Assembly (NCBI GenBank): GCA_964016885.1
Contig: OZ024744.1
Span: 47,554,001 to 47,618,000 of the forward strand
Length of the DNA stretch: 64,000 nucleotides
Direction: 5' to 3'
DNA from: Eledone cirrhosa
Taxonomy: Eukaryota
Part shown: positions 16,716 through 58,806 of the stretch, piece after piece
Layout of the letters: the number at the start of each line of letters is the position of its first letter
Numbering within the stretch: the first letter of the stretch is position 1
Program-made: the position numbers and the translations under genes
The notes under the pieces: model-generated
Told to the model about the DNA's origin: nothing
What the model saw: the letters and a program-made list of their open reading frames with translations, nothing else
Databases searched by the model: none

Positions 16716-17365
16716 GAAGGACTTAAGAGATTTAATATTCTTAAGATTTAGATGTTTAAACTAATTTTAGTCAATTAAATGTGTTGCTTGTTTTTCTTGT
16801 TTTCACTTCTTTAAAAACAAACATTTATGTGTAAATAAAAACAATTCTATAACTTTAATATTTGTTGGATGGTACTTTCATGACAGTTCAAATTATGACT
16901 TTTTAAAAATATAATTCACATTTGAAAATACTTTCTTCTCTTTTTCTTCAGCCATTCATTTCTGAGAGGATTGTAGGGGGTAGAGTCCTCACACCTCTTC
17001 TAGGTCCTATGTGTGTAAAATTTCCTCTTTACACTACACACACACAACAACACATCACTCTGCACACACACACCACATCAAAACACCACAATACACACCC
17101 CATCCCACACCACAGACACACATCATGCCACACCACACCACAACACATACCACACTAGGTAGGTATACCAACCCAGTATCTTGGTTTTAGTGATATTTTC
17201 GTAATAAATCTCAACATCCCAGACCTTAGCAAGTGGAGTGGAACCCATCAGATTGGACATTAAATGATGAGCTGTGACATCATTGGTGTCAACCTGTTTC
17301 AGCCATACATTTGGACAACAGTGTATAGATATATAGAAATCATATATATATATGTGTGTGTGTGT

Positions 17366-17990
17366 TCTAGAGACTAGGTGCAGGGGTAGGTCTGCTAGAT
17401 TCAATTTCGGTAAAAAAAGATGCTATAAACTTTTCTGGATGGGAAATGACAATGGGCTGGGTGGAGTAGGAATTATGTTAGCAGAGAAATGGGTAGATAA
17501 GGTAATTGCCATAAATAGAGTGAACGACAGAATAATTAAAATAAGACTAGTTATAAATAGAACAACTATGACAATAATATCTGCCTATGCACCCCAATCT
17601 GGCCTACTTGACGTTATAAAAGACAGGTTCTATGATTTTCTAATGCTCACTTCCTCCCAAATAACAGACAGTGACTGCATAATTATTGCTGGTGACCTAA
17701 ATGGTCACATTGGACAACGTTGTGATGGCTATGATGGAATCCATGGAGGCTATGGGTTTGGTACTAGAAATGAGGAAGGCTCCAGAATCCTGGAATTTTG
17801 TGACGCAAATAACCTAACTATCTGTAACACAAACTTCAAAAAACGAGACAATGACTTGATCACCTGTAGATCAGGGGAACACGCCAGCCAGATATACGAT
17901 ATCCTTACTAGGTGTGACAGTGTCTGTTGTAAACACTAAATCCCTCCCCTGTGAAAAATTCACCTCCCAACATAGCTTAGTAGTTAGTGA
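17366..17990 (+). pseudogene. Apurinic/apyrimidinic-like endonuclease domain of the RTE LINE
   Basis: ETR, GVGIML, IISAYAPQ, IIAGDLNGHIG, GFGTRNEEG, NTNFKK, QIYDIL, SQHSLV motifs. Confidence 0.9.
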
Positions 17991-20613
17991 CCTCACAGTC
18001 AGGACTAGACGTACTCGACGACAGAGGAGGACTACCTTGAGGAGAAGATGGAAGTTGAAGGACCTCATAGCCAGTGACAAATTGAAAAGCATATTAGTTA
18101 ATGCTTTTGACAGTAAAGAGGTGCAATTAGAGACATACAATATAGAGAAACAGTGGCAATTCTTGAAAGTTAACCTGCCGAAGGCGACAGATGAAATCTG
18201 TTGCTGGAGCAGACCTATAGGTAGGAGGAGAGTAACTTGGTGGTGGAACAGTAAGGTGGAGGAGTCAATCAAGGCCAAAAAGCAGGCTTGGAAAGTATGA
18301 CGGAAGTAGAGAACACTATCAAGTAGCCAGGAGAGAAGCTAGGAGACAAGTGTACCTTGCACGGAGGGAAGCAGAAGATAGGAAGTTCAAGCATATTCTA
18401 CAACGCGAGGACCAAAAACATGAGGTGTTCAGGATCGCAAAACAAAGTGTCAAGGAAAACCATCATTTTGTCAGGGAGAAGTGTGTCCGTAATGATGATG
18501 GTGTACTTTCCTCACTGATACTGATAAGAAGGTAGCTTGGAAGTGTCACGACGAGAGACTACTAAATGAGGAGAATAAATGGGAAAAAGATAGTCTGCCC
18601 CACATCGATCCAATAGAGGGACCAGCAGTGCAAGTTAATGGTAGTATAGTAAGTAAGGCAATCAAAGATATGAAGACAGCCAAGGCAGCTGGGCCTTCGG
18701 AGATAGTTGCTGAGATGTTGAAAGCATCTCGAATGGTGGGACATACTATGGACACCCAAATAGTAAACCAAATAATACAGAATGGGGTCATACCAGATGA
18801 CTGGCGTAGCAGCATCATTGTTAACTGCTACAAGGGTAAAGGAGATACCCTAGATAGGGGAAACTATAGAGGCATTAAATTAACCGACCAGGTCATGAAG
18901 GTCACAGAAAGAGTTATAGCACAACTAATCAGAGAACGAATTGATCTAGATGAAATGCAGTTTGGGTTCATGCCAGCTAAAAAGTACCACAGATGCTATT
19001 TTCCTTGTACAGCAACTATAGGAGAAGTACCCAGTTAAAAGTAAACCCCTCTACTTAGCTTTTGTTGACTTGGAGAAAGCCTTTGACAGAGTCCCCCGCT
19101 CCATTATCTGGTAGGCCCTTAGAAATGGAGGAATAGATGAATGGCTTGTGAGAGCTATACAAGCCATGTACAAAGAAACAGTCAGCAAGGTTAGAATTAA
19201 CAATGAATATAGTGAAGAATTTAGCGTAAAAGTAGGTGTTCAGCAAGGCCCCATCCTTAGCTTCCTCCTCTTTATTATTGCCCTTCAGGTTATAACAGAG
19301 GGGTTTAAGACCAGCTGCCCATGTGAACTTCTATATGCAGATGATCTAACTCTCCTAGCCTAATCTATGGCTGAACTAGAGAAGAAATTCCAAAATTGGA
19401 GGCATGGCTTTGAATCAAAAGACGCTAAAGTTAACTTGTCTAAGACTAAAGGTCTAGTATGTAGAAAAGAAAATAGGGCACTGGTGCCATGCTCAGTGTG
19501 TAGGAAAGGGGTAGGTAGAAATTCCATTCTATGTCCCAAATGCAAACTATGGGTACATAAAAGATGTAGTGAGATCACAGGTAAGCTATCTAAGAATGTA
19601 GATTTTATATGTGGCCGATGCTCATGAGAAATAAGCAACAAGTACCCACAGGATACTAGCACGTTCTACTGTCCAGATGGTTCTATAGAAATAGTGGACA
19701 CTTTCTGTTGATGGGTGACTAAATCAACAGTGGTGGAGGGTACTCTGAAAGTGTAGTAGCCAGAGTTAGAACGGGATGGAAAAAGCTCAGAGAGCTAATA
19801 CCGCTGCTAGACACAAAAGGTTTCTCTCTAAAAATGAAAGGCAGATTGTATGATGCGTGCATACGAAGAGCAATGTTAGATGGCAGTGAGACATGGGCAT
19901 TGTGTGCAGAGGACCTGCGCAGATTGGAAAGGAATGAAGCATACATGATCTGTTGGATGTGTAATACACGAATTGCAAAACATAAAGGAACTAAGTGAGA
20001 AATTAGGAGCAAGAGGGATCCGATACTGTTTACTTGAGCGAAGATTATGTTGGTATGGTCATGTGATGCGCATAAAGATGACAGTTTTATAAAAAAAAGT
20101 GCAGGGTGATCAAAATTGATGGAAGTTACGGAGTAGGTAGACCCAGAAAAACCTGGGACGACATAAAATCCAACCTTGCACACTCACACCTCTCTAAGAC
20201 AATGTCACTGGATCTATGGCACCACATAGTAACAGAGAAGAACTGCCTTCCCTACGTGCAAAGTTAACCTACAATCAGTAGGCCCCTCCTAACCAAATAT
20301 ACACCCCAACCCACACACCCTTACTCCATCCTCCCACTCCCACCAACACCACCCTGTCTCTGTAATGTTATGTTGGTACCACAACATCCAGTCCAAACTA
20401 AAGAGGTCGTGTAAGTGTCATCACGAAAAGCCTCCCAGTTCACACTGGAAATGTGGTTGGTGTTAGGAAGGGCATCCAACCATAGAAAACCTGCCAGATA
20501 CAGTCCTATACGAGCGAGACACTGTTACCCGATCAATCTTGCCTCAAGTGGGACAATTCCCATCTATACCATGCTAGCGTGGAAGATAGACATTAAATGA
20601 TAATTATGATGAT
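17366..20613 (+). mobile_element. RTE-clade LINE, near full-length ORF2 (APE-RT-PHD) with stops/frameshifts and long 3' UTR
   Basis: APE motifs, RT motifs (NYRGIKL, QFGF, FVDLEKAFD, GVQQG, LYADDL), GRPRKTW, tail GACATTAAATGAT...GATGAT. Confidence 0.95.
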
Positions 20614-20716
20614 TATATATAGTGTATATAATAGTTGTAAAGTCACTGGTGCCGATCTGTATCAGTCTTTCCCTTGGACAACATGACATATAGTCTATAT
20701 ATACTGGACAGTATTA

Positions 20717-23093
20717 TCATCATCATCATAATCATCGTTTAACGTCCATTTTCCACGCTAGCATGGGTTTGGACGGGAATTTTCCCACTTGAGGCAAGAT
20801 TGGTTGTCCTGCTCGTATAGGACTATCTGGCGGGTTTTCTACGGCTGGATGCCCTTCATAACACCAACCACGTTTACAGTGTGGACTGGGAGGTTTTTAC
20901 CGTGTTACCTACACGGCCACATTACAGGGTGGACTGTGTGTTTTTTTGTCGTGACACCTACACGACCTCATTTGTTTCGGACTGGATGTTGTGGTACCAA
21001 CATAACTTCACATTGAAGGGGGTGGTGTGGATGGGGTGGGGGTAGTGGGACAGGGGTGTATTTTTGTTAGAGGTGCCTACTGACTGTAGGTTTCGCTTTG
21101 TACTTAGGCAAGGCGGGTCTTCTGTATTACTGTGTAGCGCCAAAGATCTCTGTCCAGTGACATTGTCTTAGAGAGGTGCAAGTGTGTGAGGTCGGAATTT
21201 ATCAAGTCGTCCTAGGTTTTTCTGGGTCTGCCTACTCCGTGGCTACCGTCTATTTTTATCGCGCTGCACTTTTTTTTATACAGCTGTCGTCTTTCATGCG
21301 CATCACGTGACCATACCAACGTAGTCTTCTCTCAAATAAACAACATCTGATCCCTCTTATTCCTAATTTCTCCCTTAGTTCGTTTATGCTTTGCCGTTCA
21401 CCTACATTACTCTTACACATCCAGCGGAGCATGCAAGCTTCGTTCCTCTCCAGTCTTCTTATATCCTCTGCACACAATGCCCATGTCTCACTGCCATGTA
21501 AGATTGCTGTTCGTATGCAGGCATCATACAGCCTGCTTTTCATTTTTAGAGGGAACCCTTTAGCGGCCAATAGTGGTATAAGCTTTCTGAACTTTTTCCA
21601 TCCCGTTCTGACTCTAGCTACTGTACTTTCAGAGCACCCTCCCCCACTGCTGATTTTGTCACCCAGGTAACGGAAAGTGTCCACTATTTCTATAGAACCA
21701 TCTGTGCAATTGAATGAGCTAGTATTCTGTGGGCACTTGCTGCTACTTATTGCACCAGAGCACCGGCCACATATAAAATCTATATTCTTAGTTAGCTTAC
21801 CTGTGATCCCACTACATTTGGGACATAAAATGGAGTTTCTGCCTACTACTTTCCTACACACTGAGCATGGCCATTTCCCAGATGGGACCGGTGCCCTATT
21901 TTCCTTCCTACAAACTAGAACTTAAGTCTTAGACAAGTTAACTTTAAGGCCTTTTGATTCTAGGCCATGCTACCATGTTTGGAATTTCTTCTCTAGTTCA
22001 GCCATTGATTCAGCTATGAGCGTTAGATCATCTGCATATAGGAGTTCCCATGGGCAGCTGGTCTTGAACTCCTCTGTTATAACCTGAAGGGCAATAATAA
22101 ATAGTAGGGGGCTAAGAACGGAGCCCTGATGAACATCAACATTTACGCTAAACTCTTCACTATATTCGTTGTTAATTCTAACCTTGCTGACTGTTTCTTT
22201 ATACATGGCTTGTATAGCTCTCACAAGCCATTCATCAACACCTAGTTTTCTAAGCGCGCCCCAGATAATGGAGCGGGGGACTCTGTCAAAGGCTTTCTCC
22301 AAGTCAACAAAAGCTAAGTATAGGGGTTTACTTTTAGCTAGGTACTTCTCCTGTAGTTGTCGTACAATGACAAGAGCGTCTGTGGTACTTTTACCTGACA
22401 CAAACCCGAACTGCATTTCATCTAGATCAATTCGTTCTCTGATTAGTTACGCTATTACTTTTTCTGTGACCTTCATGACCTGGTCGATTAATTTAATGCC
22501 TCTATAGTTACCCCTATATGGGGCATCTCCTTTAGCCTAATGATGATGCTGCTACGCCAGTCCTTCGGTACGACCCCATTCTGTAGGACTTGGTTTGCTA
22601 TCCGGGTGACCATAGTGTGTCCCACCGTTCCAGATGCTTTCAGCATTTCAGAAACTATTTCCGAAAGGCCCTGTCGCCTTACCCGTCTTCATATCTTTGA
22701 TTGTCTTACTTATTATACTACCTTTAACTAGCACTGCTGGTCCCTCTATTGGATCGATGTGGGGGAGACTGTCTTTCTCCCAATTATTCTCCTCATTTAG
22801 TAGCCTTTCGTAGTGACATTTCCAAGCTACCTTCTTATCAGCGTCAGTGATGGCAAGTACACCATCATCATTAAGGACACACTCCTCCCCGACAATATCA
22901 CTGTTTTCCTTGACAATTGCCTAGCAATCCTGAACACCTCACGTTTTTCGTCCTCGCGTTGTAGAACAAGCTTGAACTTTCTTTCCTCTGCTTCCCTTCT
23001 TGCGAAGTACATTTGTCTCCTAGCTTCCCTCCTGGCCACTTGATAGTCTTCTTTACTTCCCCTATCCCGCCATACTTTCCAAGCCTGCTTTTT
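20717..23093 (-). mobile_element. RTE-clade LINE, 5'-truncated, tail-to-tail with the preceding copy
   Basis: (CAT)n tail at 20717; ORFs 21970..22416 (QFGF, FVDLEKAFD, HQGSVLSP, LYADDL) and 21256..21861 (FRYLG, HGSETW, RLRWYGHV). Confidence 0.95.
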
Positions 23094-27835: not shown

Positions 27836-28545
27836 ATATTGTTATGCTTTGGGAGAGTCGTGTTGCCAATAAGAAACACACGCACCAGCTGCTTTCACTC
27901 CAATTTATTGTAAGTTAAATTTATAAATTTAAGAATTTATGAATTTCCGGTTGGTTGGTTTGTTCCACAACCGGACGGTTGTTCATATATTGTCAAAGTT
28001 CTTTCATCACACATTCTGTGAACTCTTCAGTGACTGGGGATTCTTTTCTTTGTTTTGTGCCTCTCCTTTGTTCTGTCCTACGCCATCTTGTTTTTGTGTG
28101 TGTGTTGTGTGCTTAGTTTGCGCATGTGTTCCATCCGGGCGTCTATGTGTGTTTTTTATAAAAATAAAAATAAAAACAAAAACACACTCAGACACCCGGA
28201 TGTAACACAAAAACAAGACACAACACACAAAAACAGGATGACGTAGGACAGAACAAAGGAGAGGCACATTAGACAGAAAAGAATCTCTAGTCACTGAAGA
28301 GGTCACATAATGTGTGACGAAAGAACTTTGCCAATATATGAACAACCGTCCAGTTGTGGAACAAACCAACCAACCGGAAATTTATAAATTCTTAAATTTA
28401 TAAATTTAACTTATAATAAATTGGGTGAAAGTAGCTGGTGCGTGTGTTTCTTATTGGCAACATGACCCTCCCAAAGCATAACAATATCGGGTTCAACACT
28501 CGTTTTCAGATAAAGAATCTTGCTAAACAAATTCAGAAACGAAAT
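27836..28545. mobile_element. Inverted pLTR pair of PLE family A (palindromic, no ORF); similar units 31449..32152 and 47351..48046, single arm 41600..41995
   Basis: Left part is the reverse complement of the right part; arms match the 3' region of the GIY-YIG element at 45817..46270. Confidence 0.88.
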
Positions 28546-29438: not shown

Positions 29439-29555
29439 AGGTAACAATTGTTTCTATAGTGTATGGGTTACCTATACCTCGCTATTTGAATAATATACAA
29501 ATATTATCATAAGCCGAAGGTACACTGTAAGCAAACACACCATGTCTTCAGACCT
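29439..29555 (-). ncRNA. Type I hammerhead with ~90-nt helix II
   Basis: Minus strand AGGT-CTGAAGA-CATGGTGTG...TACACTATA-GAAAC AATT GTT-ACCT-AATAAA. Confidence 0.7.
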
Positions 29556-29965: not shown

Positions 29966-30682
29966 TTATATGCATTTAAAAAAAGAAAAAGTCGTTTTCA
30001 AACGATGGTTACAGTATAGAGAACGTTCAATTTTGCTGTTCAAAAGTTTGTTTACCGACGTTAAAATGCAGTACATCTCTAAATTGCATAACTTGCAGAA
30101 TCGATGATTTTGCTGATATGCAGGCGCAGCTGCAATAATTTGCCAATCAAGGGAGAACGCTTGATTGTTCCTCCGAAGCTGCCAGGCTTTATCGGCGAGG
30201 GTTGTTACGGAGCGCATTTTCTCGTGCCTGATCGAAGATCGATGTTGGTATAGGCGAGCCTTGAAAGAAGTTGCGGTACATCCGACGTAATACCATTTGT
30301 TGGTTCCGGAATTTATTGTACATCGGTAGACAATATTGCGTGCTAGGCACTGGTTATTCAGTGGGCATGTACCTGGTTTGGTGCAGTTACAATTATTTTT
30401 ATGTTTTGCAGTAGAATCCTGGATAGTTTGGTGGGGTTGTGGTTGCATGTTAGTGGGTTGTATGTTGCTATGCTGGTGCGTTGAGTCATTAGTGATGTAC
30501 TTATTCAGTATTGCTGAGTTGAGTTTTCTAATTAGTTGTTCTATGTTAGGTGCAGTGGAGTATGAGAGTCTAATGGTGCGCGAGTTGAAGATTTTATAGT
30601 ATTTATGTGAAGTTATAAAGTGTTTATTGATTAGTGTATAGAATTGTGAGATAATCTTAGTGCTAATAGAAGAATTGTACAC
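29966..30682 (-). CDS. PLE linker and GIY-YIG endonuclease (fragment of the single PLE ORF)
   Basis: CNC-x5-CPL..QCL..NIVY...YVG.T..SFKAR..QH...TTLA...W...CKLC..E; C-terminal C.H. Confidence 0.88.
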   Translation of the reverse strand: MYNSSISTKIISQFYTLINKHFITSHKYYKIFNSRTIRLSYSTAPNIEQLIRKLNSAILNKYITNDSTHQHSNIQPTNMQPQPHQTIQDSTAKHKNNCNCTKPGTCPLNNQCLARNIVYRCTINSGTNKWYYVGCTATSFKARLYQHRSSIRHEKMRSVTTLADKAWQLRRNNQAFSLDWQIIAAAPAYQQNHRFCKLCNLEMYCILTSVNKLLNSKIERSLYCNHRLKTTFSFFKCI

Positions 30683-32368
30683 GGGGTTATACCATATGTA
30701 CTCTCCACGTCTGACTCTATTTGCTGGTTTGCACCTATTAGTATGCCTATTGATGTGTGTGTGTGTGGTGCAATACTAGTTCGACTTACATGTGTTTTAT
30801 TCGTAGTACTTATGTGGTTATCGTCTAGATATTCAATTTTCTCGCAGTAACCAGCTTTTCTAAGTGCGTCATTATAATATTCAGCATGCTCGTTGAAGTC
30901 TGCAAATTAGACGACAGTCGGGAGATCCTTATGGATATATTTTTAGGGATAGATTTAATAATGGAATGAGGATGGTTCGATTTTACATTAACGTACTTAA
31001 GATTTTCATTAATATATATTATATATAGTGTATTTTGCAATACACTGTATGCTTAATTAAAAGCATTTCGAAGACCTTATGCTATTTTTTAGAGTAGTGA
31101 CAGTCTCACTTACTTTAAACTTTCAGCAAACAGGGGAGATAAAGCTGACAGAGCTATGTTTCGTACTGATTGTTACTTATCAAAGCCAAGTACTCCACCT
31201 TTTTGCTGAAAATCATGAATGTTTGATTCTTATATAAATTCTAGTAATAATCAGGAACTGATTATACAGAGCGGCTGCCGTTCAAGCAGAAATTGAAAAT
31301 TAGAATTGGCGCTCTGAAATAGCGATATATATATGAATGTATATATAGTGTATTTTGCAATACACTGTATGCTTAAGTAAAAGCATTTCGAAGACCTTAT
31401 GCTATTTTTTAGAGTAGTGACAGTCTCACTTACTTTAAATTTTCAGCAATATTGTTATGCTTTGGGAGGGTCATGTTGCCAATAAGAAACACACGCACCA
31501 GCTGCTTTCACTCCAATTTATTATAAGTTAAATTTATAAATTTAAGAATTTATGAATTTCCGGTTGGTTGGTTTGTTCCACAACCGGACGGTTGTTCATA
31601 TATTGTCAAAGTTCTTTCGTCACACATTCTGTGACCTCTTCAGTGACTGGGGATTCTTTTCTTTGTTTTGTGCCTCTCCTTTGTTCTGTCCTACGCCATC
31701 TTGTTTGTGTGTGTGTTGTGTGCTTAGTTTGCGCATGTGTTCCATCCGGGTGTCTGTGTGTGTGTTTATAAAAATAAAAATAAAAACACACACAGACACC
31801 CAGATGTAACACAAAAACAAGACACAACACACACACAAAAACAAGATGGCGTAGGACAGAACAAAGGAGAGGCACAAAACACAGAAAAGAATCCCCAGTC
31901 ACTGAAGAGGTCACAGAATGTGTGACGAAGAACTTTGCCAATATATGAATAACTGTCCGGTTGTGGAACAAACCAACGAACCGGAAATTTATAAATTCTT
32001 AAATTTATAAATTTAACTGATAATAAATTGGAGTGAAAGCAGCTGGCGCGTGTGTTTCATATTGGCAACATGACCCTCCCAAAGTATAACAATATCGGTT
32101 TCAACACTCGTTTTCAGATAAAGAATCTTGCTAAACAAATTCAGAAACGAAAAAAAATATATATATATATAGATAAATCTACCAAAAGTTTACGGTAGTG
32201 TCCAATCCGTATGAAGAACTCAATGTAATCCGGATATCATGAAAATATGAGATGCATTCAAAAATCACTTTCGGTGAAAGATAAACGGAATACAGAGTCA
32301 AGATAAAATATTAAAAAAATAATGAATATAACAAAGAAACAGTTCCTTATATTAAACAAAAAAAAGTT

Positions 32369-32507
32369 CATTATTTTACGATCGTTTCTAGGACATATAT
32401 GTTATAGAATTGGTATGCATATTCAAAAGATCTATGTACAAAATTATACAAACTATCAAGGAGATTATACATACCATCACATATATATGCTGTCTTCAGA
32501 AATAATG
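32369..32507 (-). ncRNA. Type I hammerhead with ~105-nt helix II (mirror of 36891..37029)
   Basis: Reverse complement of CATTATTT-CTGAAGA...GAAAC GATC GTA-AAATAATG. Confidence 0.78.
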
Positions 32508-33597
32508 ATGTATATTTATTGATAATAACAACAATTCAAAATTACAGGTCTGTTTGGGAACAGATTTTAAATAGACCAATGAAATACATAAAAACTCATC
32601 AAGAAAATACAGTTTGGTGTGTGTATATATGTAAGTAAATTCGCTCACAGATATGCATAAAAATATATGCCTATATGCATACGCATGTTGAAAAAGTGTA
32701 TGTAAACATAAAAATTAAAAAATTTAGGGCTAATGTATCTGTATGTTTACAATCTACAGACAAAATATACATATATATACATATATATATACACATATAT
32801 ATATACACACATATACACACATGCATACACACACACGTACACATACATAAACACACACATACATACGAACACACATATATACACACACACACATACGTAT
32901 ATATTATTATTATAACTATATGGATATTGAGGCGCTCACATAAACACGCCCACACACACTTACATTTAGATGCATAAGTAAAGGAGGTAAGGGAGTAAGT
33001 AATTAAAGGAAAGTGTCAAACTTGACATATTTATAAAAATGTATCTATAAAGTTAGAAATAAAAAAAAATTGTTATAGAAGGAAAAAACTTTAAAACGGG
33101 GGAACAAAAAATAATAAGGGGGGGTACGTACATACACAGACGCGAATGTCTCACAAAAGAAATATAAAAAAACATAAAAAAAACATAAAAGAGAGACATA
33201 AAATATACATGCTTATATACTTACGCACATTTACACATCCATACGTTCGATACATACATACGTACACACACACACATACACATACTTAACCTCACACATA
33301 TTAACCTGTTTGTATGCATATACATAAAAATAAGTAAAACATATACTCATACATATAAATACACACCGATATATATATATATATATACACATACGCACAA
33401 CACACATATATATACATATATATACACACACATATATATATATATATACATATACATACACATATATATATATACACACACATATACATACACACATATA
33501 TATATATATATATACATACACACACACATACCCATGTATATATACACAACCACACACACACACACACTCAGACATACATATATATAGAGACATACAT

Positions 33598-33636
<39 letters not shown>

Positions 33637-33715
33637 GTCAGACACATATGCACATATATACACATACATACACACATCTCTACAAATACATATACATACA
33701 CATACATACATACAC

Positions 33716-33767
<52 letters not shown>

Positions 33768-33959
33768 TCATACACGCATATTTACATGTGCACATATGTA
33801 TTTTTATACTCACATACAAATACACAAACATACATACACACTTACATACACATACATACATCCACGCTTACAAATACGAATAATTAATGGGGGGGAAGGG
33901 GGATTAAAATTATTAGTGGGAAATAGTAAATATATAGGTTTCAAGGAACATAGAATATT

Positions 33960-34960
33960 AATCTGCAGTTAAATCATAATATGTGTTTACATAGTTGTGT
34001 CAGTATTAGGAAATGGTATTTGTAAGAAAGAAGGCTAAATTATGTATTTTAATATAAGTAGACTATTAATTATAGGTTAATTAAAGTAAAAATAGTTAAT
34101 ATATTAATTTCTAAGGTGTATACTACTTAGGTTTATAATATTTAAAGCGGAATTTTGAAGTTAAACAGTAGTAGAGTATTAATTATAGCATAACAAAATT
34201 AAAAATAATTACATATATTAACATGATGGTATCAATTTTAGGAAATGAATTTTGTAATAGGGAAAGCCAAATTAAGTATTTCATCGGTAGTAGAATATTA
34301 ATTATAGGTTAACTAAATTAAAAATTATATATTAATTTCTATAGTATATGTTAATTAGGTTTATAATAATTAAAGCAAAATTTTGTATTTTATCTATAGT
34401 AGAATATAATAATAGGTTAACTAAATTAAAATTAATCTATATATTTATTTGTAAAGAGTATATTAATCAGGTATATATTTAAAAGTTTTTCTCAGTTTAT
34501 GATTACACGATAATCTTCAATCCATCTGTATTAGAATTTTAATTATAATCTAACTAAATTAAAATTATAGGTTAACTAAATTAAAATTTATTTATAAATT
34601 AATTTCTAAATTGTATATTAATTAGGTTTATAATATTAAAAAGTATTTCTCCGTTATTAATTACACGATATTTTGTTGTATTTCATCTGTAAAAGAATTA
34701 GAATAAAAGGTTAAATAAACTAAAATTAATCTATATATTAAATTCCAAAGTATATATTAATTATGTTAATAATATTTAAATGTTTTTCACAGTTTATGAT
34801 TATACGATATTTTTTAATTTCATCTGTAGTAGAATTTTAATTAAATTAAAATTATAGGTTAACTACATTAAAATTAATTTATATATTAATTTCTAAAATA
34901 TATATTATTAATTAGGTTTATAATATTTAAATGTTTTTCTCAATTTATGATTACACGATA
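33960..34960. repeat. Degenerate AT-rich tandem repeats that include copies of the last codons of the GIY-YIG ORF
   Basis: TTTTTCTCAATTTATGATTACACGATA-like motif at ~34485, 34645, 34782, 34932; ATTATAGGTTAACTAAATTAAAATT repeated. Confidence 0.7.
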
Positions 34961-36322
34961 TAATTAATTCCTGTCGCTTATTTAATAGGATATCCTTAGA
35001 TTTCATTATTTCAAATAGTTCTTGGGAACACAATCTACATTCATTTCTATTATTTTGATAAGGGGTGGCTCTTTTGAGCACACTCCAGGTCATATCATAT
35101 TCTATATTCTTATTTCTATAACTATTAATTTTTTCTGCTAGAGATGTTGTATTAGCCAGTGCGGCATTTTTAAAACTATGTTTGTGGGTATTAAACCTTA
35201 CCTTAAAATTGTTAGAAGTAGCTCCTATATATGAGCAAATAGAATCTTTAGTTTTAACTTTACATTTATAAACTATGTTGTTAACAAGACAATTTCCTTT
35301 TAATGGGCAGTTTGCTTTGTTTCTACAGTTACAACCTTTCGTTAATTCTGTATTTGAGGAGATATTATGGTTAGTTTGATGTATTGGTGGTATACTTATG
35401 GGTTTTTTTACATTTATATGCATTATAGGCACTTATATTTTGTTTTATATTTTTGGTTGTTGAGTATGAGAATTTAACTGTTGATCTATTTAAGATTTGA
35501 TTGTATTTGTGGTTTGGCGGGAAGTTTTTCTCTAGGATGTTAAAAAATTTTTTAGCAATATTATCCTTAATTTGTAAATTAAATGGAGCATTATACCAAG
35601 TAACTCGTCTATTACGGTTTCTATGTTGTTTATTGTTTTTATAGGATGCATCCTGATGTTTACTAGGAGGATTAATGTTAATGACCTCACCACGCACATT
35701 TTTAGTTAGATTTATTGATTTAGGTGTTTTAGCTTGTTTATTAGGAGTTTTATTATTAACATTTATTAGAGTTGTATGATGAGTAGTTTTTTGAGAGTTA
35801 CTATACTTTATATTAGAGGAGTTAGAGAAATTTGGTTTTATGTTGGTATTTTGGGGTATAGTGTGAGTGGCATTTAGGTGTGTACTTTTCATTTGGTGTT
35901 TGTTGGTAATATTAGGTTGTATGTTTATAGTGTTATTAGTAGAAGGTATATATTCCAATCTATTTTTGTGGCCACTTCTATCTAGAGCTTCGTTATAGAA
36001 GGTCGCATTTTTATCAAATACATCTTGGTTAGACGAAAGGTTAGAAATTCTAAGTGATATATTATATGCAAGGTTTTTAAGGATAGATTTAGGGTGATTA
36101 GATTGTGAGTGTATGTAGTGTAAGTTTTGGTTGGGTTTATGGCAAGGTTGGTAGATACCCGTAGCTAAGTCTAAAGTTATATCTAGAAAATTAACTACTT
36201 TACTTGTGTTTTCAAAAGTAATATCAAGACTATAATAGTCTTTAAGGAAAGTTCTAATAAGCTTTTTGTTTTTTTCTATTCCTGAGAGGCTAAGGTTGTT
36301 GGAAAGAAGAAGACAGTCATCA
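34908..36322 (-). pseudogene. PLE ORF fragment: RT from the catalytic DD onward, Asn-rich linker, GIY-YIG
   Basis: Manual translation DDCLLL...VVNFLDITLDL...SNHP; WYNAPF, KFSYST, CNCRNKANCPLKGNCL..NIVY, YIGAT, CRLC; frameshift near 35400. Confidence 0.9.
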
Positions 36323-36890
36323 TAAAAATTTTTTTATTTCTAACTTTATAGATACATTTTTATAAATATGTCAAGTTTAACACTTTCCTTTAATTACTTA
36401 CTCCCTTACCTCCTTTACTTATGCATCTAAATGTAAGTGTGTGTGGGCGTGTTTATGTGAGCGCCTCAATATCCATATAGTTATAATAATAATATATACG
36501 TATGTGTGTGTGTGTATATATATGTGTGTTCGTATGTATGTGTGTGTTTATGTATGTGTACGTGTGTGTGTATGCATGTGTGTATATGTGTGTATATATA
36601 TATGTGTATATATATATGTATATATATGTATATTTTGTCTGTAGATTGTAAACATACAGATACATTAGCCCTAAATTTTTAAATTTTTATATTTACATAC
36701 ACTTTTTCAACATGCGTATGCATATAGGCATATATTTTTATGCATATCTGTGAGCGAATTTACTTACATATATACACACACCTAACCGTATTTTCTTGAT
36801 GAGTTTTTATGTATTTCATTGGTCTATTTAAAATCTGTTCCCAAACAGACCTGTAATTTTGAATTGTTGTTATTATCAATAAATATACAT

Positions 36891-37029
36891 CATTATTTCT
36901 GAAGACAGCATATATATGTGATGGTATGTATATTCTCCTTGATAGTTTGTATAATTTTGTACATAGATCTTTTGAATATGCATAACAATTCTAACACATA
37001 TATGTCCTAGAAACGATCGTAAAATAATG
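36891..37029 (+). ncRNA. Type I hammerhead with 104-nt helix II, GUA cleavage triplet
   Basis: Perfect 8-bp helix I (CATTATTT/AAATAATG), CTGAAGA at 36899, GAAAC at 37010, palindromic helix III ACGATCGT. Confidence 0.8.
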
Positions 37030-37085
37030 AACTTTTTTTGTTTAATATAAGGAACTGTTTCTTTGTTTTATTCATTAATTTTTTA

Positions 37086-37145
<60 letters not shown>

Positions 37146-47353: not shown

Positions 47354-47803
47354 ATTATACTTTGAGAGCGTCATGTTGCCAATAAGAAACACACGCACCA
47401 GTGCTTTCACTCCAATTTATTATAAATTAAAAACATTTTTTCTAAAAATTCATAAATTTCCGGTTGGTTGGTTTGTTCCGCAACCGGACGGTTGTTCATA
47501 TATTGTCAAAGTTCTTTCGTCACACATTCTGTGACCTCTTCAGTGACTGGGGATTCTTTTCTTTGTTTTGTGCCTCTCCTTTGTTCTGTCCTACGACATC
47601 TTGTTTTTGTGTGTGTTATGTGCTTAGTTTGCGTATGTGTTACATCCGGGTGTCTGTGTGTGTTTTTATGAAAATAAAAATAAAAACACACACAGACACC
47701 CGGATGTAACACATGCACAAACTAAGCACACAACACACACAAAAAAATAAGATGGCGTAGGACAGAACAAAGGAGAAACATAAAACAAAGAAAAGAATCC
47801 CCA

Positions 47804-47846
47804 GTCACTGAAGAGGTCACAGAATGTGTGACGAAAGAACTTTGAC
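47804..47846 (+). ncRNA. Minimal type I hammerhead, family A; also 27992..28034-, 28290..28332+, 31605..31647-, 31898..31940+, 41806..41848-, 46027..46069-, 47505..47547-
   Basis: GTCA-CTGAAGA-G-GTCACA GAATG TGTGAC-GAAAG AA CTT-TGAC. Confidence 0.72.
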
Positions 47847-48062
47847 AATATATGAACAACCGTCCGGTTGTGGAACCAACCAACCAACCGGAAATTTATA
47901 ATTTTTTTAATTTATAATAAATTGGAGTGAAAGCAACTGGTGCGTGTGTTTCTTATTGCCAACATCACCCTCCCAAAGCATAACAATATCGGTTTCAACA
48001 CACGTTTTCAGATAAAGAATCTTGCTAAACAAATTCAGAAACGAAATATATATATATATAAT

Positions 48063-51000
48063 GGTAATAATAATAAATTTGAAGACTAAAATCCAAAGAG
48101 GGCTCGATAAGGATAAATATATATCAAATATATAATAACCGTAGAGCAAATATTTATTAAAATAACAGATTAAATTTAAGCAAAGAATCACTGCTTTCAC
48201 CCTTAACGGGATCTTCTGAAACTAACAAAAGTCAATATGTAAACGCAGAAGTGGATATTTCAAAAAACGTTGCAACTGGAGGAAGACAGGAAGATGATAC
48301 TTTGGTTCGTGGAAACGTTCTCTGGCAAAGAACGGGAAAAAACGAATATAATACGTCATTAATAGGAGCGGTGAAAAACAATTACACGCAAAGACAGAAC
48401 CACGTTTAGGGTATAAAAGAAGTCGTAGACTAATGTTCTCTTAGGTGGTTCATAGAGACGTTCTCTGGCAATGAACGAAAAAAACGAAGATAATACGTCA
48501 TATGTGGAGCGTGGAGAACAATTGCACGCAAAGACAAAACCACGTAAATGGTATAGTTGAAGTCGTAGACTAAAATTCTAACTAGGAAACCGAATGATTC
48601 TCCGCTTCAGAGTAAAGAATAAATAAATAAAATACAATACAGAGATAATTGAAATAAAATAAATACATACCCGAATCCAAATACGTACATACACAAGCAT
48701 ACGAGAAAACTCTCGCCACAGGTATACAAAACGACGCACATATAAATGTGTGTGTGTGTGTGTGCGTGTATACAAATAAATATGTAATTAAATAAACGTA
48801 TATAAATAAATAAATACGTATATAACAAGCGCACGCACATACCTACATGTAAATCCACAAATGTTCGGAGACGAACGTCAACCAAAGCATGAAGTACACA
48901 TATACACGCATCCAACATGCGTGTGAACCCGCATACTCACACAGACGCAAAACTCCCGTAAACACATAACCAAAAGCATATGTACCAGAATATAGAAAAA
49001 TATACGCCCTAACATATACAATCAAATATACGTACGAGAAAGTATACGTACCTTCATAAAACATACAGATAATATATACTTACCTATGCAAATAAGTAAT
49101 GGTATAAACACAACATATACTTAGCTACCACATCAAGACGTAAAATATCCACGTATAGATCGTACTATCCGTTAGGGTATAATGTGGGGCTGTAATACAG
49201 GAAAGTTTTGAGCAATTTATATTTACAAGCCGAAATTGCCTCAGATTTTTTGTTTAAGATGTGGTCTGTGGCGTAGAGCGTTTCCAGGGCCTCAGCGGCG
49301 CAGAGATCACATGGTTTTTTATTTCCGTTATACGATCTAGCCCTAGCTAGGATCTCCCAGTGTAACTTATATTGGGTGTGGTTGTCTTTTAGACGTGTAT
49401 GTACGTATTTGGATTCGGGTATATATTTATTTAATTGCAATTACCTCTGTATTGTATTTTATTTACTTTATTCTTTACTCTTGAGCGGAGAATCAATGAA
49501 TCAATCGGCTTGTTAGAATTTTAGTCTACGACTTCAGCTATACCATTTACGTGGTTTTGTCTTTGCGTGCAATTGTTCTCCACGCTCCACATATGACGTA
49601 TTATCTTCGTTTTTTCCGTTCATTGCCAGAGAACGTCTCTATGAACCACCTAAGAGAACATTAGTCTACGACTTCTTTTATACCCTAAACGTGGTTCTGT
49701 CTTTGCGTGTAATTGTTTTTCACCGCTCCTATTAATGACGTATTATATTCGTTTTTTTCCCGTTCTTTGCCAGGGAACGTTTCCACGAACCAAAGTATCG
49801 TCTTCCTGTCTTCCTCCGGTTGCAACGTTTTTTGAAATATCCACATACCTAAAATTTCTGATACAGAAAACAGACGCGTTCATTAAAAGGTTGCGTTGGC
49901 GTGCCTTTTATTTCGATAATTCGCGAAAAGCTGACAACAAACAGGATAAATTTGCGTTTAAAACCTATAACCCTCCGTGTAACCCAGCATTGCTACCCTT
50001 TGAAAATGATGTCTTGCACTCATACGGAGTATCAAATTTCGGAATAGGAGCAATTCCTTCCAGCAGGACGTGAAGAATAGAATTCGTTCTATTAAGGATT
50101 CTAATGCCGTACACGTCCATTCCGACAAAACTGGCAACCTATATCAAGTGGAGCGCAGTACTTACCATCAACTCCTACATAATGTTGTAACTAAGGATTA
50201 CCGTAAAACTAATCGGTGCGTCATCAATAAAATCAACGATGCTGGGTTTAAAATCACCTCCGATCTCAACATCCTGGACCGGACCGAACCTTTGGACCCT
50301 ATTTCTCCCCACTTTACACTGAAGAATCACAAATCCGATTTTCCGAACAACCCCTCTATTCGGCTTATTAACCCTACGAAGTCCGACTTAGTAAAAGGAT
50401 TCTTGATAGAATTATACCTGTAATTAGAAGTGTGGCCCCTCTTGCACTGTGGAACAATTCTTTTGCGGTGATTGATTGGTTCAACGGCATATGCAACAAT
50501 GAACATTGCCGTTTTATCCAATTCGACATCAATAATTACTACTCCTCCATCACTTTACCACTTCTACTTAGAGCTATCAATTTCGCTAAAACACTCACAG
50601 TGGTTAAGGATTTCGAAGTTGATGTCATCCTCAATGCCCTTAAGTCGGTGATTAATATCGAGGACTCTATTTGGATTAAAAAGTCCAATAGTACCCCTTT
50701 CGACGTGAGTATGGGCGCAGCGATTCTGCGGAGGTTACTGATCTTATCGGCCTTTTCCTTTTTTCTCCGTCAAGGACGAATTCCCCAACGAGGGCGGTGG
50801 TTTGTACCGTGACGATGGTCTTTTGACCATGACCAAGTGCGACCCTCGTGCTTGCGACAGGTTCAGAAAAGAACTCACAGCCTTCTTTAAAGGCTTCAAC
50901 CTCTCTATACAGGTTGAGGCCAACCTCTCGGTCGTTAATTACCTCGACGTTACCCTCAATTTATCGAATGGCTTCTATTACCCGTATAGAAAGCCGAATG

Positions 51001-52892
51001 ATACGCTTAATTACATTAGTAAGCATTCCAACCAACCTGCCAGCATAACCATGAACCTGGTAAGAAACGTTTCGTTGAGGCTTTCCCGTCTATCTACTAA
51101 CGAGCATATTTTCAACGACCATTCCACTTATTACAATGAAGCTCGGAGTGGATTTGTCGATAAGGTAGCATATACAGAGTACGAGAATAGACCTAGAAGA
51201 AATAGATCCCGTCGCATTATATGGTATAACCCACCGTATAATATGGAGGTGGCCACACCATTAGCTAAGATCTTTCTATCCCTTATTACGAAGCATTTTC
51301 CCCCTACACATAAATATAGTAACATTTTTAATAGAAATACTATTAAAATTTCTTCCTCTACGACTCCTAACATTGCACATAACATCACAGCTTCAAATTT
51401 AGCTAAACTACCTAGCCGTAGGAACACGTGCCACCCTGTGGTTAGTATAAACTGTAATTGTAGGAATCGGGTTGATTGCCCGATATCCGGGAAATGCCTA
51501 TCTAGTAACATTGTCTACAAATATAAGGTTGAAACACCTACATAGGGTTAACCGCCAATAGATTCAAGCAGCGTCTTTACATGCATACCCATTCTTTTCG
51601 TTACCCTCTAAGAAGGAATATGACGTCACTTTCAGCTTATATCTGGAGTCTAAAAGACAACCACACCCAATATAAGTTACACTGGGAGATCCTAGCTAGG
51701 GCTAGATCGTATAACGGAAATAAAAGACCATGTGACCTCTGCGCCGCTGAGGCCCTGGAAATACTCTACGCCACAGACCACATCTTAAACAAAAAATCTG
51801 AGGCAATTTCGGCTTGTAAACATAAATTGCACAAAACTTTCCTGTATTACAGCCCCACATTATACCCTAACGGATAGTACGATCTATACGTGGATTTTTT
51901 ACGTCTTGATGTGGTAGCTAAGTATATGTTGTGTTTATACCATTACTTATTTGCATAGGTAAGTATATATTATCTGTATGTTTTGTGAAGGTACGCATAC
52001 TTTCTCGTACGTATATTTGATTGTATATGTTAGGGCGTATATTTTTCTATATTCTGGTACATATGCTTTTGGTTATGTGTTTACGGGAGTTTTGCGTCTG
52101 TGTGAGTATGCGGGTTCGTACGCATGTTGGGTGCGTGTATATGTGTACTTCATGTTTTGGTTGACGTTCGTCTCTGAATATTTCTGTATATACATGTAGG
52201 TATGTGCGTGCGCTTGTTATATACGTATTTATTTATTTATATACGTTTATTTAATTACTTATTTATTTGTATACACGCACACACACACACACACACATAT
52301 TTATATGTGTGTGGTTTTGTATACCTATGGCGAGTGTTTTCGCGTATGCTTGTGTATGTACGTATTTGGATTCGGGTGTGTATTTATTTATTTCTATTAC
52401 TTCTGTATTGTATTTATTTATTTTGTTCTTAACTCTGTAGCGGAGATTCATTCGGTCTCCTAGTTAGAATTTAGTCTACAACTTCTGCTATACCATTTAC
52501 GTGGTTTTGTCTTTGCGTGCTATTGTTCTCCACGCTCCACATATGACGTATTATCTTCGTTTTTTTTCGTTCATTGCCAGAGAACGTCTCTATGGACCAC
52601 CTAAGAGAACATTAGTCTACGACTTCTTTTATACCATGAACGTGATTCTGTCTTTGCATGTAATTGTTTTTCACCGCTCCTATTAATGACGTATTATATT
52701 CGTTTTTTCCCGTTTTTGCCAGGGAACGTTTCAACGAACCAAAGTATCGTCTTCCTGTCTTCCTCCGGTTGCAACGTTTTTTGAAATATCCACTTCTGCG
52801 TTTACAGATTGACTTTGTTAGTTTCAGAAGATCCCGTTAAGGGTGAAAGCAGCGATTCTTTGCTTTAACTTTAATCTGTTATTTTAATAAAT
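48063..52892 (+). mobile_element. Near full-length Penelope-like element (Hydra-clade-like, family B): inverted 3' copy, partial direct pLTR, ORF, pLTR
   Basis: 48150..49394 is the reverse complement of 51648..52892; 49395..49843 is a direct partial pLTR; ORF 49844..51877. Confidence 0.93.
49844..51877 (+). pseudogene. PLE RT + GIY-YIG ORF with several frameshifts
   Basis: FIKRLRWRA, SDKTGNLY, IRLINP.KSD, FIQFDINNYYSSI, FDVSMG, LYRDDGL, VNYLDVTLNL, WYNPPY, CNCRNRVDCP, TSLSAYIW, CDLC..E, LNKKSE..SAC.H. Confidence 0.93.
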
Positions 52893-53280: not shown

Positions 53281-55062
53281 GACGCTGATAAAAAGGAAGC
53301 TTGGTAGTGTCACTACGAAAGGCGTCTAAATGAGGAGAATAAATGGGAGAAAGACAGTCTTCCCCACATCAATAGTCTTCCCCACATCAATCCAATAGAG
53401 GGAACAGCAGTGCAAGTTGAGGGTAGTATAATAAGAAAGGCAATCAAAGAAATGAAGACGGGTAAGGCGGCTGGGCCTTCGGAAATAGTTGCTGAAATGC
53501 TGAAATCATCTGGAACGGTGGGACACACTATGGTCACCCGGATAGTAAACCAAGTCATACAGAATGGGGCCGTTCCGAAGGACTGGCGTAGCAGCATCAT
53601 CATTAACTGCTACAAGGGTAAAGGAGATGCCCTAGATATGGGAAACTATAGAGGCATTAAATTAATCGACCAGGTCATGAAGGTCACAGAAAAAGTAATA
53701 GCGCAACTAATCAGAGAACGAATTGATCTAGATGAAATGCAGTTCGGGTTTGTGTCAGGTAAAAGTAAACCAGACGTTCTTTTCATTGTACGACAACTAC
53801 AGGAGAAGTACCTAGCTAAAAGTAAACCCCTATACTTAGCTTTTGTTGACTTGGAGAAAGCCTTTGACAGAGTCCCCCGCTCCATTATCTGGTGGGCTGT
53901 TAGAAAACTAGGTGTTCATGAAATGGCTTGTGAGAGCTATACAAGACATGTATAAAGAAACAGTCAGCAAGGTTAGAATTAACAACGAATATAGTGAAGA
54001 GTTTAGCGTAAAAGTTGGTGTTCATCAGGGCTCCGTTCTTAACCCCCTACTATTTATTATTGCCCTTCAGGCTATAACAGAGGAGTTCAAGACCGGATGC
54101 CCATGGGAAGTCTATATGCAGATGATCTAATGTTCATAGCTGAATCAATGGCTGAATTAGAGAAGAAATTCTAAACATGGAAGCATGGCCTAGATTCAAA
54201 AGGCCTTAAAGTTAACTTGTTTTAGACTAAAGTTCTAGTTTGTAGGAAGGAAAATAGGGCACCGGTCCCATCTGGGAAATGGCCATGCTCAGTGTGTAGG
54301 AAAGGAGTAGGCAGAAACTTGATTTTATGTCCCAAATGCAAAGTATGGGTGCATAAAAGATGTAGTGGGATCACAGGTGAGCTAACTAAGAATGTAGATT
54401 TTATATGTGGCCGGTGCTCTGGTGCAATAAGTAGCAGCAAGTGCCCACAGAATACTAGCTCATTCCATTGCACAGATGGTTCTATAGAAATAGTGGACAC
54501 CTTTCGTTACCTGAGTGACAAAATCAGCAGTGGGGGAGGGTGCCCTGAAAGTACAGTAGCTAGAGTCAGAACAGGATGGAAAAAGTTCAGAGAGCTTATA
54601 CCACTATTGGCCGCTAAAGGCTTCTCTCTAAAAATGAAAGGCAGGCTGTATGATGCCTGCATACGAACAGCAATGTTACATGGTAGTGAGACCTGGGCCT
54701 TGTGTGCAGAGGATCTACGCAGACTGGAGAGGAACGAAGCTTGCATGCTCCGCTGGATGTGTAATAGTAATTAATATACGTGAACGGCAAAGCATAAACG
54801 ACCTAAGGGAGAAATTAGGAATAAGAGGGATCAGATGTTGTTTACTCGAGAGAAGACTACGTTGCTACGGTCACGTGATGCGCATGAAAGACGACAGCTG
54901 TATAAAAAAAGTGCAGGGCGATAAAAATAGACGGTAGCCACGGAGTAGGCAGACCCAGAAAAACATGGGACGACTTGATAAATTCCGACCTCACACACTT
55001 ACACCTCTCCAAGACAATGACACTGGACCGAGATCTTTGGCGCTACACAGTAATAGAGAAAA
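53281..55062 (+). mobile_element. RTE-clade LINE fragment (RT with intact PHD finger)
   Basis: ORFs 53410..53955, 53912..54130, 54292..54774, 54650..54937; very similar to the 20717..23093 copy. Confidence 0.94.
54286..54417 (+). other. C4HC3 PHD-type zinc finger inside the RT; also 19489..19622+, ~15170..15305-, ~12490..12620-, partly deleted ~21760..21866-
   Basis: CSVC-x10-CPKC-KVWV-HKRC-x14-CGRC, between the KTK motif and FRYL(G/S). Confidence 0.85.
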
Positions 55063-56936: not shown

Positions 56937-58806
56937 ATTAAAATACTGGAGCGTGTTGGAGCTAAACACCCTCTTCGTATTATAGAAATGACAGTAAAAG
57001 GTATAGCTCAATGTAATTAAACAGAGCCGATGAATTATGAAAGTAAAACAAAGAAGCCTTCAATACATCAAAAGTCTTTATTAGCCAACAATGTTTCGTC
57101 CTATTAAGGACTCATCTGGACAATTAAAACAACAAGAAGTATTATCGGCCAATACAAGCCGAAAACTCCGAAGAATATGGAGTGTACATACACTAAAGTA
57201 TTGCAAGATTATGGGTAAAAATATATAATAGAAATATATAATAAAAATCACTAAGGAGGTGTATAACATTTAGAACCATATTACAAATATAGTCCAAAGC
57301 AAAAAAAACCTCGAGCTAAACAAAGGTGGTTATATAGAGCGGGAATTATATATCATACCATATAAAATAATATAATATACTTGTAACAATATTAAAATTA
57401 CAATAAAAATTAAAAGGTACAATATATATATGTATATATGTACGCACACGTACGCACACATACACATACATCAATACACATATCCATCTTCAACAGCACA
57501 AATTAAACCTTATTAAGTGTTTAAATATAAATAAGCATGATAGGAATAAAAATAATAATAATAATAATAATACGTATATCTAATATACATGAGGTAATAA
57601 TATGATATGATTATAAGCAGCACATATAATATATAATAAACTATACAATTATATACCATATAATATAATATAATATAATAGATAATCACCGGTTAATTTA
57701 CGCAAACAATATAGATGTCACAATAATACTATAATAATAATATAATAACATATATAATACATAACATATAATGGCATGCAAGTTAACAAATCAATTCATA
57801 TAGAGTTACAGAGTAGGTGAGAAAAAATATAAATTATACAATACACAAAATTATGATGGTACAAAAATATAAACCTCTTACATGATATATAAAGTTCAAC
57901 ATATCGTAATGGTACAATATAATCAACGGTAAGTAATAAGGATCGATAGTACAATAACAAATATAATATAAAATAATTAACATAATATAATATATAATTA
58001 CTTATAATTACAAGGTAGGTAAACAGACATATATGTGGATGAGTGAGTAAGGGCCAGACAGTAAATAGAATGCACAGTAGTATTAATAAATAAATAAATA
58101 AATAAATAGAATCAACCGGAAATTAAAAAACAAGAACAAAAGTATATACTTAGGTCTCACATACAGTTAAGTAAAAACTTAGGAAACAACCCCAGTAAAT
58201 GACTCGAAAACCCTATTTGATAAATTAATATTAAAAATATTTAAAATATCTAATAAGGCAATACAATATTAGCTATGGTTTAAGTAATCAAAATTTATAA
58301 ACGTTAGTATTTAACTACAAATATATATATAAGGAATGAAATTTTCTACTATCATTTACATAACGATATCTAAAAAACTGACCTAAGCAGAATTATGGTA
58401 GGCTAATAGGGACAGAAAAAAAGAAATGTATGGAGCATACAAAGGAGCATAAAATCAGCCAATATACTATATTAAATAATAGAAAGGAGCGTAAAAGAGG
58501 GGGGGGGATTAAATATAATCATAATCTATTTGAAGGGGTTGACAATAAGTTTAGTACGTATGGGGGGGGGTATCCAAGAAGAATCCAAGTAAAATAAAAT
58601 AAAATAAAATGAAATAAAATAAAATAATGTAAAATATATAATCAGATATATACTCATAATGCGTAAGAAGATAGATATGGTATAGTAGCCAAAAGATTAT
58701 GAGAGCTAGAATAAAGAGTTGTCAAAAACCAATGATAATAATGATGATAATAATGGTGGTAAACAAAAAGAACCTAAACTAAAAAATAAGTAATGGAATA
58801 TATCAG

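Follow-up and report, generated by a model that had tools for sequence, protein, structure and literature searches.

Hammerheads described in Penelope-like elements

The closest described systems are the hammerhead ribozymes of Hydra-clade Penelope-like retrotransposons (PLEs). In the parts of the survey accessible to us (Craig et al. 2021, PMC8557442), these are type I motifs at the 3' end of the element with a short palindromic helix III, the elements target (TA)n and leave inverted 5'-truncated copies, and helix II can carry a mismatch at its base, U.U in 14 of the 25 listed families. The motifs reported here resemble them in each of these respects. They come from a 64,000-nt window of Eledone cirrhosa, the whole stretch of DNA that was analysed (assembly GCA_964016885.1, contig OZ024744.1, positions 47,554,001 to 47,618,000), and from the genome around it. 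However, helix II of the listed families measures at most ~26 nt (23 nt in the one octopus family), whereas it spans 46-166 nt here, with C.A and A.A as common closings and a conserved internal loop. Three kinds of case in the accessible supplement come nearer in single traits: PLE-X1_cBra from Chara closes its short helix II with C.A, in PLE-X1_sMoe and sTam from the spike-moss Selaginella the core boxes are separated by ~50-55 nt, and in the Naiad 'HHR_half_core' cases, of which two come from cephalopods, the core halves lie 35-50 nt apart. Unlike the host motifs, the PLE-X1 and Naiad cases belong to other clades, are about half as long, stand isolated and are marked as deviating, and that supplement reports no module shared among them.

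The minimal metazoan PLE hammerheads (Cervera and De la Pena 2014, PMC4209133, as far as available) share the pLTR site and a palindromic helix III that implies dimers, and were described with a helix II 'larger than usual' and low expected activity; their helix II has 6-8 bp, a bulged base and a conserved G10.1-C11.1, compared with 25-40 bp and a symmetric mismatch here. A mismatch at the base is also shared by natural U10.1.U11.1 hammerheads (Perreault 2011, PMC3088659; axolotl HHR_Amex2, PMC7229834), U.U being reported as the mispair tolerated best, but their stems are short, and the accessible portions of these papers do not mention C.A or A.A. Large arm insertions are compatible with function in the discontinuous Clec2 hammerhead (150-1500 nt), although that ribozyme is type III with the insertion in helix I, and the minus-strand hammerhead of CChMVd has an 'unusually long helix II'; both are single cases in the available text (PMC6155905, PMC3705267) and not a retrotransposon radiation. 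Finally, the Anolis Poseidon element PAc (Frangieh 2024, PMC11167929, in its accessible part) likewise has a 'tail' from two reverse-transcription starts and uncut RNA as the main template. It belongs to the Poseidon clade and its short helix II overlaps the start codon, while here the tail is ~115-135 nt and the ORF starts 200-360 nt past the cut. The literature searched, with partial coverage, yielded no report of a 60-166-nt helix II in PLEs, nor did the available text of bioRxiv 10.64898/2026.07.22.740005, PMC13725137 and PMC6765202 describe a long-helix-II form. The 46-166-nt length of helix II together with the conserved internal loop therefore appears to be new; the base mismatch has already been published for Hydra PLEs.

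Three long-armed hammerhead motifs in the window

Two families, designated A and C, contribute three sites to the window, and all three are type I hammerhead motifs with an intact core, a palindromic helix III and a closed helix II of 90 or 104 nt. In family A, on the forward strand, the 5' strand of helix I (36890..36898) pairs with 37022-37030 over 9 bp including the terminal pair; a preliminary description of the locus had given a perfect 8-bp helix, one pair fewer. The core box CUGAAGA (C3-A9; CTGAAGA in DNA) at 36899..36905 was retained in 82 of the 85 sampled copies of the family, the remaining three reading CUGAGGA. The 104-nt helix II (36906..37009) starts with CA and ends with TA, giving C10.1.A11.1, A-U, G-C and C.C, then long interrupted stems. 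It is followed at 37010..37021 by the GAAA box, the palindromic helix III (ACGAUCGU) and the GUA triplet, with the cut predicted after A37021, and at 37022..37093 by the helix I 3' strand and a short 3' end (~+72 nt) joined to (TA)n, an end point identical in many genomic copies. The layout of core, insert and GAAAC-GATC-GTA proposed for 36891-37029 was borne out. So was that of the family C motif on the reverse strand (29439..29555), which has a 90-nt helix II (29455-29544), a 4-bp helix I with AATAAA after it and a predicted cut after U29443. The proposed mirror copy of family A is also present, in the sense pLTR on the reverse strand (32368..32508, predicted cut after A32377). The two family A copies flank a truncated ORF as the arms of a single inverted structure. 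The mirror copy therefore does not count separately, and the window holds two independent examples rather than three.

The long-insert hammerhead pattern was matched three times in the window and not once in 100 shuffles. As the preliminary description had proposed from the CA and TA ends and their complementarity, the inserts fold as closed hairpins beginning with C.A and then A-U, at -29.6 (36906-37009), -28.7 (mirror copy) and -26.1 kcal/mol (90-nt insert) and z of -4.1, -4.1 and -2.7, respectively; 4 of 200 shuffles equalled the 90-nt insert. The constrained folding suggested there placed the hammerhead merely 1.6-1.7 kcal/mol above the minimum-energy fold, and constrained folds and closed inserts together allow helices I, II and III all to form around the core. 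The type I order of CUGANGA, GAAA and NUH with an open helix I is present at all three sites. The family A palindrome ACGAUCGU forms an 8-bp self-duplex (-10 kcal/mol), and ACAAUUGU likewise forms a self-duplex. The canonical closing pair G10.1-C11.1 is absent from both families, with C.A in its place; it is likewise absent from the majority of published Hydra motifs. Within the A group, 5 of 38 predicted insert pairs change on both sides (14 copies), with a covariation term of -0.8, a modest sign that pairing in the arm is under selection. An E-value scan with Rfam, whose model has 45 positions, gave no Hammerhead_1 match at the three long-arm sites among the 150 of 178 matches listed; the same scan did pick up the two short hammerheads of the window. 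Self-cleavage of the long-armed motifs is likely.

The elements carrying the motifs

Families A and C are Hydra-clade PLEs in a 3.0-Gb genome that is rich in TA repeats. The family A insertion consists of an inverted 5'-truncated pLTR arm on the forward strand (36329..37093), recognized by inverted repeats I2 and I10, and of a reverse-strand portion. The latter comprises a 5'-truncated ORF remnant with the reverse transcriptase (RT) thumb, CxCX5C linker and GIY-YIG endonuclease (34908..36333, frameshift near 35410), a long, microsatellite-rich 3' UTR (32509..34907; 2.4-2.75 kb in full-length copies) and, delimited by copy ends, a 'tail' of ~135 nt (32171..32305) between the two alternative 3' ends of the family. 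The 5'-truncated Hydra-clade ORF remnant of family C (29966..31010, reverse strand) ends ~417 nt before its hammerhead, a spacing that is alike in other copies.

An intact 817-aa family A ORF was found in locus L156. It carries RWR (37), DKT (115), DITMG, YRDD, CxCX5C (CNCRNKANC, 677), Y...YIG (698), CxxC (CRLC, 775) and CxH (CNH, 803), and no CCHH; these RT and endonuclease features are those given for the Hydra clade in the accessible section 11 of PMC8557442. Inspection of families A, C, J and L showed no conserved Cys pair between GIY and YIG, and Pfam returned no match above cut-off for these ORFs.

At their 3' side, copies stop in (TA)n at either of two fixed positions. Measured from the predicted cut, these are ~+72 and ~+205 for family A and, for family C, ~+50 and ~+165. 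Such a two-ended PLE tail has been explained by two reverse-transcription starts (PMC11167929, accessible part). Tandem copies carry a hammerhead on both sides of the ORF (L151-L155; families J, L, M and C), and the distance from the upstream hammerhead to the ATG is 360-362 nt in five A copies and roughly 200-300 nt in C, J, L and M. The lengths of UTR and helix are uncoupled: a 12-nt helix lies ~1.7 kb past its ORF and a 90-nt helix 417 nt past its own. AAUAAA stands ~4-12 nt past the cut site in families C, L, J, E, G, N and P, and directly before helix I in family A. Five divergent families share an acceptor-like site (pyrimidines, AG, then TTGAGC or TCGAG) 30-45 nt before the ATG, seen in L151, L128 and L139 (A), L250 (C), L219 (J), L221 (L) and L224 (M), which might mark where a 5' UTR intron ends, as in Penelope.

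Abundance and length of helix II across the genome

Whole-genome searches gave ~30,000 long-helix-II pattern matches in 3 Gb, compared with ~820 in controls made from reversed patterns. By class, these were 3,453 CA...TA inserts of 74-104 nt (control 48), 2,049 C...A inserts of 42-88 nt (control 98; this pattern overlaps slightly with the preceding one), 7,563 non-C...A inserts of 62-112 nt (control 40) and 17,246 inserts of 46-126 nt without terminal A, i.e. without A11.1 (control 633). Short inserts of 8-44 nt with an equal helix III type numbered 12,076 (control 986). A sample of 120 long matches was checked, made up of the leading 30 from every search and lying entirely on contig C1; both helix I and a closed insert were found in 86 of them. 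Taken together, the pattern counts and sample checks make the long helix II the commoner form among hammerheads with this type of helix III.

Standard searches admit only short spacers: the core-only one in PMC8557442 (accessible part) takes 7-17 nt, and the Rfam model has 45 positions. They would therefore miss roughly 20,000 motifs in this genome (~30,000 raw matches x 86/120 passing). Some PLEs scored as lacking a hammerhead may carry long-armed ones.

Long forms in the host range from 46 to 166 nt, within a continuum from 11 to 166 nt overall. The longest copies, 156 and 166 nt (L502 and L501), were picked from the matches above 126 nt, among which they alone look genuine, and none of the first 20 matches above that length passed both the helix I and the closed-insert checks. 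One step of growth is visible in a 114-115-nt subfamily, which differs by a 10-nt tandem duplication at the helix II tip. Family consensus inserts mostly fold at z of -2 to -7, with weaker values in sparsely sampled families, and the base closes less well in some copies of G, K, M, O and P. Contigs X1 and X4 added family variation only, X4 having coverage too thin for covariation. One copy of family L (L467:1500-1710) has a ~100-nt foreign repeat in the helix II tip and a helix base that is still closed.

Several apparent cases were discarded. Inserts of 180-220 nt proved to be 62- and 96-nt helices with variant cores, and the 65-nt 'family F' to be a helix II of 20 nt preceded by an extra core box. 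The tie of the 62-nt family E' to an endonuclease was withdrawn, as that endonuclease has its own U3-A8 hammerhead; a link made for an 83-nt motif in L250, which is a separate insertion, was withdrawn as well.

Base closure and relationships among families

A mismatch at 10.1.11.1 weakens the hammerhead core. C.A is the majority state among distinct copies in both families of the window, as anticipated in the preliminary description (80 of 85 in A and 21 of 22 in C, part of the first sample having been gathered with a search pattern that itself demands C.A). As the mark of a subtype it failed. C.A makes up less than one fifth of the raw long-helix matches, and the 241 distinct motifs, grouped in 43 clusters, close with C.A, A.A, U.U, U-A, G-C, G-U, A.C and others; the second pair of helix II is A-U, G-C, C-G, U-A or G-U depending on the family, with exceptions in G, K and M. 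Short helices use C.A too, including the 21-nt helix of locus L317. Among metagenome loci encoding relatives, 57 of 78 have a hammerhead, and 49 of 51 distinct inserts are 10-25 nt long, the other two reading as coding; their closings are U.U (20), G-C (16), G-U (5), C.A (2) and others. From this spread, with C.A in short helices and other closings in long ones, the mismatch is an old, tolerated trait of the Hydra clade and not a signal, and it is the length that stands out. No report on the activity of C.A or A.A at this position was found in the literature searched. The families form a natural series on the mismatch and length that helix II tolerates.

The core boxes and the palindrome recur in ORF-linked families that share only ~32-60% identity in the endonuclease region and have dissimilar-looking inserts, and the letters of helix III vary by family (CGAUCG, CAAUUG, CACGUG or CAUAUG). 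The endonuclease regions of A and C are ~33% identical. We built a quick tree without bootstrap on 40 rows, covering 16 host families plus 24 of the 56 ORFs from metagenomes (60% identity filter), with half or fewer of the columns filled in eight rows. Clusters of the E types, N, O, P, Q and U were left out, as no ORF could be linked to them. A/H/M (support 100) and C/L/J/K/G (99) join at SH-aLRT 83, inside a branch of 15 host families (98). Hence, by sequence, A and C are relatives that share one branch of eight long-helix families, and the earlier view of family C as an unrelated element was not upheld. The suggestion of a long-helix-II subtype of Hydra-like PLEs stood in part: the elements are Hydra-clade and the long closed helix II is family-wide, but one clean subtype found no support, two further long-helix families, T and V, lying outside the branch and short-helix families being interspersed. 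Eight of the ten long-helix families thus fall on one branch; the tree needs two changes, of which the starred branches, in this quick tree with gappy rows, force only one, so that the long helix II may have one origin or more.

A conserved internal loop in the arm

An internal loop, 5'-A(G/A/U)U / (U/C/G)AG-3', adjoining two pairs was first spotted by eye. In family A of the window its sides are AGU (36944..36946) and UAG (36964..36966) on the forward strand, and in family C AGU (29524-29526) and UAG (29472-29474) on the reverse strand, all assigned by motif tests across families. These tests used 29 of the 43 clusters, after removal of two with a nested short core, three judged to be chance, six below 59 nt and three near-duplicates. 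In a loose test the exact module form was the top motif, in 16 of the 29 (null mean 3.3-3.9); the best of any motif in structure-preserving shuffles averaged 10-11 with maxima of 15 and 16, the observed 16 being reached at least once in 200. In a fold-aware test the module occurred 20 times in 15 of the 29 representatives against a structure-preserving null of 2.4 (maximum 6); across 40 shuffles, no three-letter motif appeared in more than 11 families.

The pairs flanking the module change by family in a compensating way (AC/GU, GU/AC, GC/GC, AU/AU, UG/CA and CG/CG), and both sides are kept in 82 of 93 A/H/M copies. Families J, L, N and G' carry two modules ~10-12 nt apart. Its distance from the core ranges from 12 to 43 nt by family, being 38-43 nt in A, H and M and 12-19 nt for the first module in C, L, J, E, G, N and P. 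Because the families are kin, the module counts are not independent and indicate conservation by descent amid divergent sequence, not independent origins. The module is absent from 14 of the 29 representatives and from equally abundant short-helix families, and thus is not required for transposition. Readings as a K-turn, SECIS core, bulged-G or UAA/GAN motif were rejected for misfit of orientation, on comparison by eye. The loop module likely binds a protein. The idea in the preliminary description that the insert could be a protein- or RT-recognition domain thereby gains some indirect support, from a loop that went unremarked there.

Proposed mechanism and alternatives

We consider it reasonably probable that these are type I PLE hammerheads in which helix II, predicted to be paired, was lengthened in host lineages and holds a loop that likely docks the element's RT-endonuclease. 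By analogy with known PLE hammerheads, two copies in a tandem transcript would pair through the helix III palindrome, as put forward for dimer cutting in PLE hammerheads (PMC4209133, accessible part), and the dimer would cut after GUH slowly, probably with protein help, to yield unit-length RNA. A protein at the loop module, which is often present twice about one helical turn apart, would favour the active fold, the step with the least support, and the naming of the element's own RT-endonuclease as that partner is the least certain part of it. In the accessible part of PMC11167929, the Anolis PLE hammerhead cleaved only in the presence of its protein. Counting against the proposed docking, that protein was hypothesised to bind somewhere within the first 172 nt of its ORF, a stretch including the short stem II of the hammerhead, with no finer mapping given there. 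Carried further, the arm would make a natural protein-gated hammerhead, with helix II as an aptamer arm whose one or two A.G/N.A/U.Y loops, spaced by one helical turn, bind a telomerase-like RT-endonuclease and switch cleavage on or off in tens of thousands of copies invisible to short-helix descriptors; we put this extension forward tentatively. A separable conserved module on a long arm would offer a direct handle on RNA recognition by a telomerase-related RT and on the help it gives to a ribozyme.

Cutting would come in as a side or late step and not the one that defines the template's 5' terminus. Among 30 full-length A copies, no 5' end fell within 10 nt of the cut, one lay at +13, one at +121 and five at +183 to +197, and 23 ran through, several of these from one tandem cluster. 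Most integrated copies thus derive from uncut RNA, in agreement with Anolis, where such RNA is the main template. The five copies starting at +183 to +197 (among L437-L466) adjoin the second 3' end at +205, and are therefore almost exactly one unit long.

The same 5' ends, which ignore the cut site, would also suit a motif that no longer cuts and whose fold is kept for another RNP job, e.g. as a structure near the reverse-transcription starts. In the accessible part of PMC11167929, hammerhead mutants of Anolis inserted normally in vitro and the cut site coincided with no RNA read end, and two related families here have the core variants CUGAAGGA and CCGAUGA in several copies. However, the catalytic positions, GUH and the palindromic helix III are all kept across divergent families, for which a non-catalytic role has no need, and we regard loss of catalysis as improbable. 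Neutral growth on an active hammerhead is a possible account, though we lean against it: helix II would extend by slippage or duplication under selection only for the closure that lets the core fold, and the loop would be an inherited relic without a partner. Insert lengths are continuous from 11 to 166 nt, a tandem duplication was seen, long helices arise in at least two places in the tree, host 3' UTRs are likewise long and microsatellite-rich, and ~12,000 short-helix matches coexist. Against it, the loop letters stay fixed amid two-sided changes in the adjoining pairs and divergence elsewhere in the insert, and UTR length does not follow helix length.

The loop might instead pack against RNA, docking helix I, the A-rich strand after helix I or the dimer partner and replacing the absent contact between loop I and loop II. 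Peripheral contacts are common in natural hammerheads (PMC3088659, as far as available), and in C, L, J, E, G, N and P the AAUAAA lies close past helix I and the first module sits a comparable 12-19 nt away from the core. In A, H and M, however, the module at 38-43 nt reaches far past a helix I of 4-9 bp, and no covarying partner was found, which leaves such packing rather unlikely; the variable distance of 12-43 nt suits a free-standing binding site more than it would a fixed helix I contact. Very improbable, in our judgement, is that the conserved letters are splice signals, with A11.1-G12 or the YAG of the module as a 3' splice site and the insert within a PLE intron. YAG does precede AAAC in A, C, J, L, H and N, GT and TAG bracket ~46 nt of the insert in several families, and the intron end of D. 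virilis Penelope overlaps its hammerhead (PMC4209133, accessible part); yet AC...GU in C, L and J against GU...AC elsewhere is a base-pair swap, fatal to a donor site, and 17,246 long-helix matches lack A11.1. A paired long arm with a protein-docking loop remains the reading we prefer.

Other elements and variants nearby

A Hydra-type family with a U3-A8 core (L207:1211, L228, L043 and L055) has a G-C-closed helix II of 54-57 nt and, as helix III, a long hairpin; for the latter reason it is possibly active as a monomer. The two families with the core variants CUGAAGGA and CCGAUGA (L473, L487, L495 and L489-L492, L505) have an intact core box 120-155 nt further upstream, without a matching helix I. 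In L159, L167, L181 and L407-L411, a 20-nt helix II is accompanied 45 nt upstream by a second core box and a similar helix I strand, so that a single GAAA can fold in either of two ways.

Elsewhere in the window, a Hydra-type element with inverted arms (48742-52300) had no linked hammerhead within 1.8 kb past the ORF in the 15 of 15 loci examined. Positions 1-12000 hold a strongly AT-skewed satellite in which a 48-bp unit is repeated in tandem ~250 times, and non-LTR retrotransposon fragments with endonuclease and RT motifs, some inverted, which we take to be RTE-like, lie at 14400-22500 and 53300-54800. Another Hydra-type element (~57034-61937) bears in its inverted arms short canonical hammerheads with a 12-nt insert and G-C closing (57080-57124, reverse strand; 61847-61891, forward strand). 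Short palindromic repeats with an 18-nt-insert hammerhead (GGUCAC...GUGAC), present in many copies (27900-28424, 31500-32000 and 47500-47900), are likely truncated or non-autonomous PLE ends.
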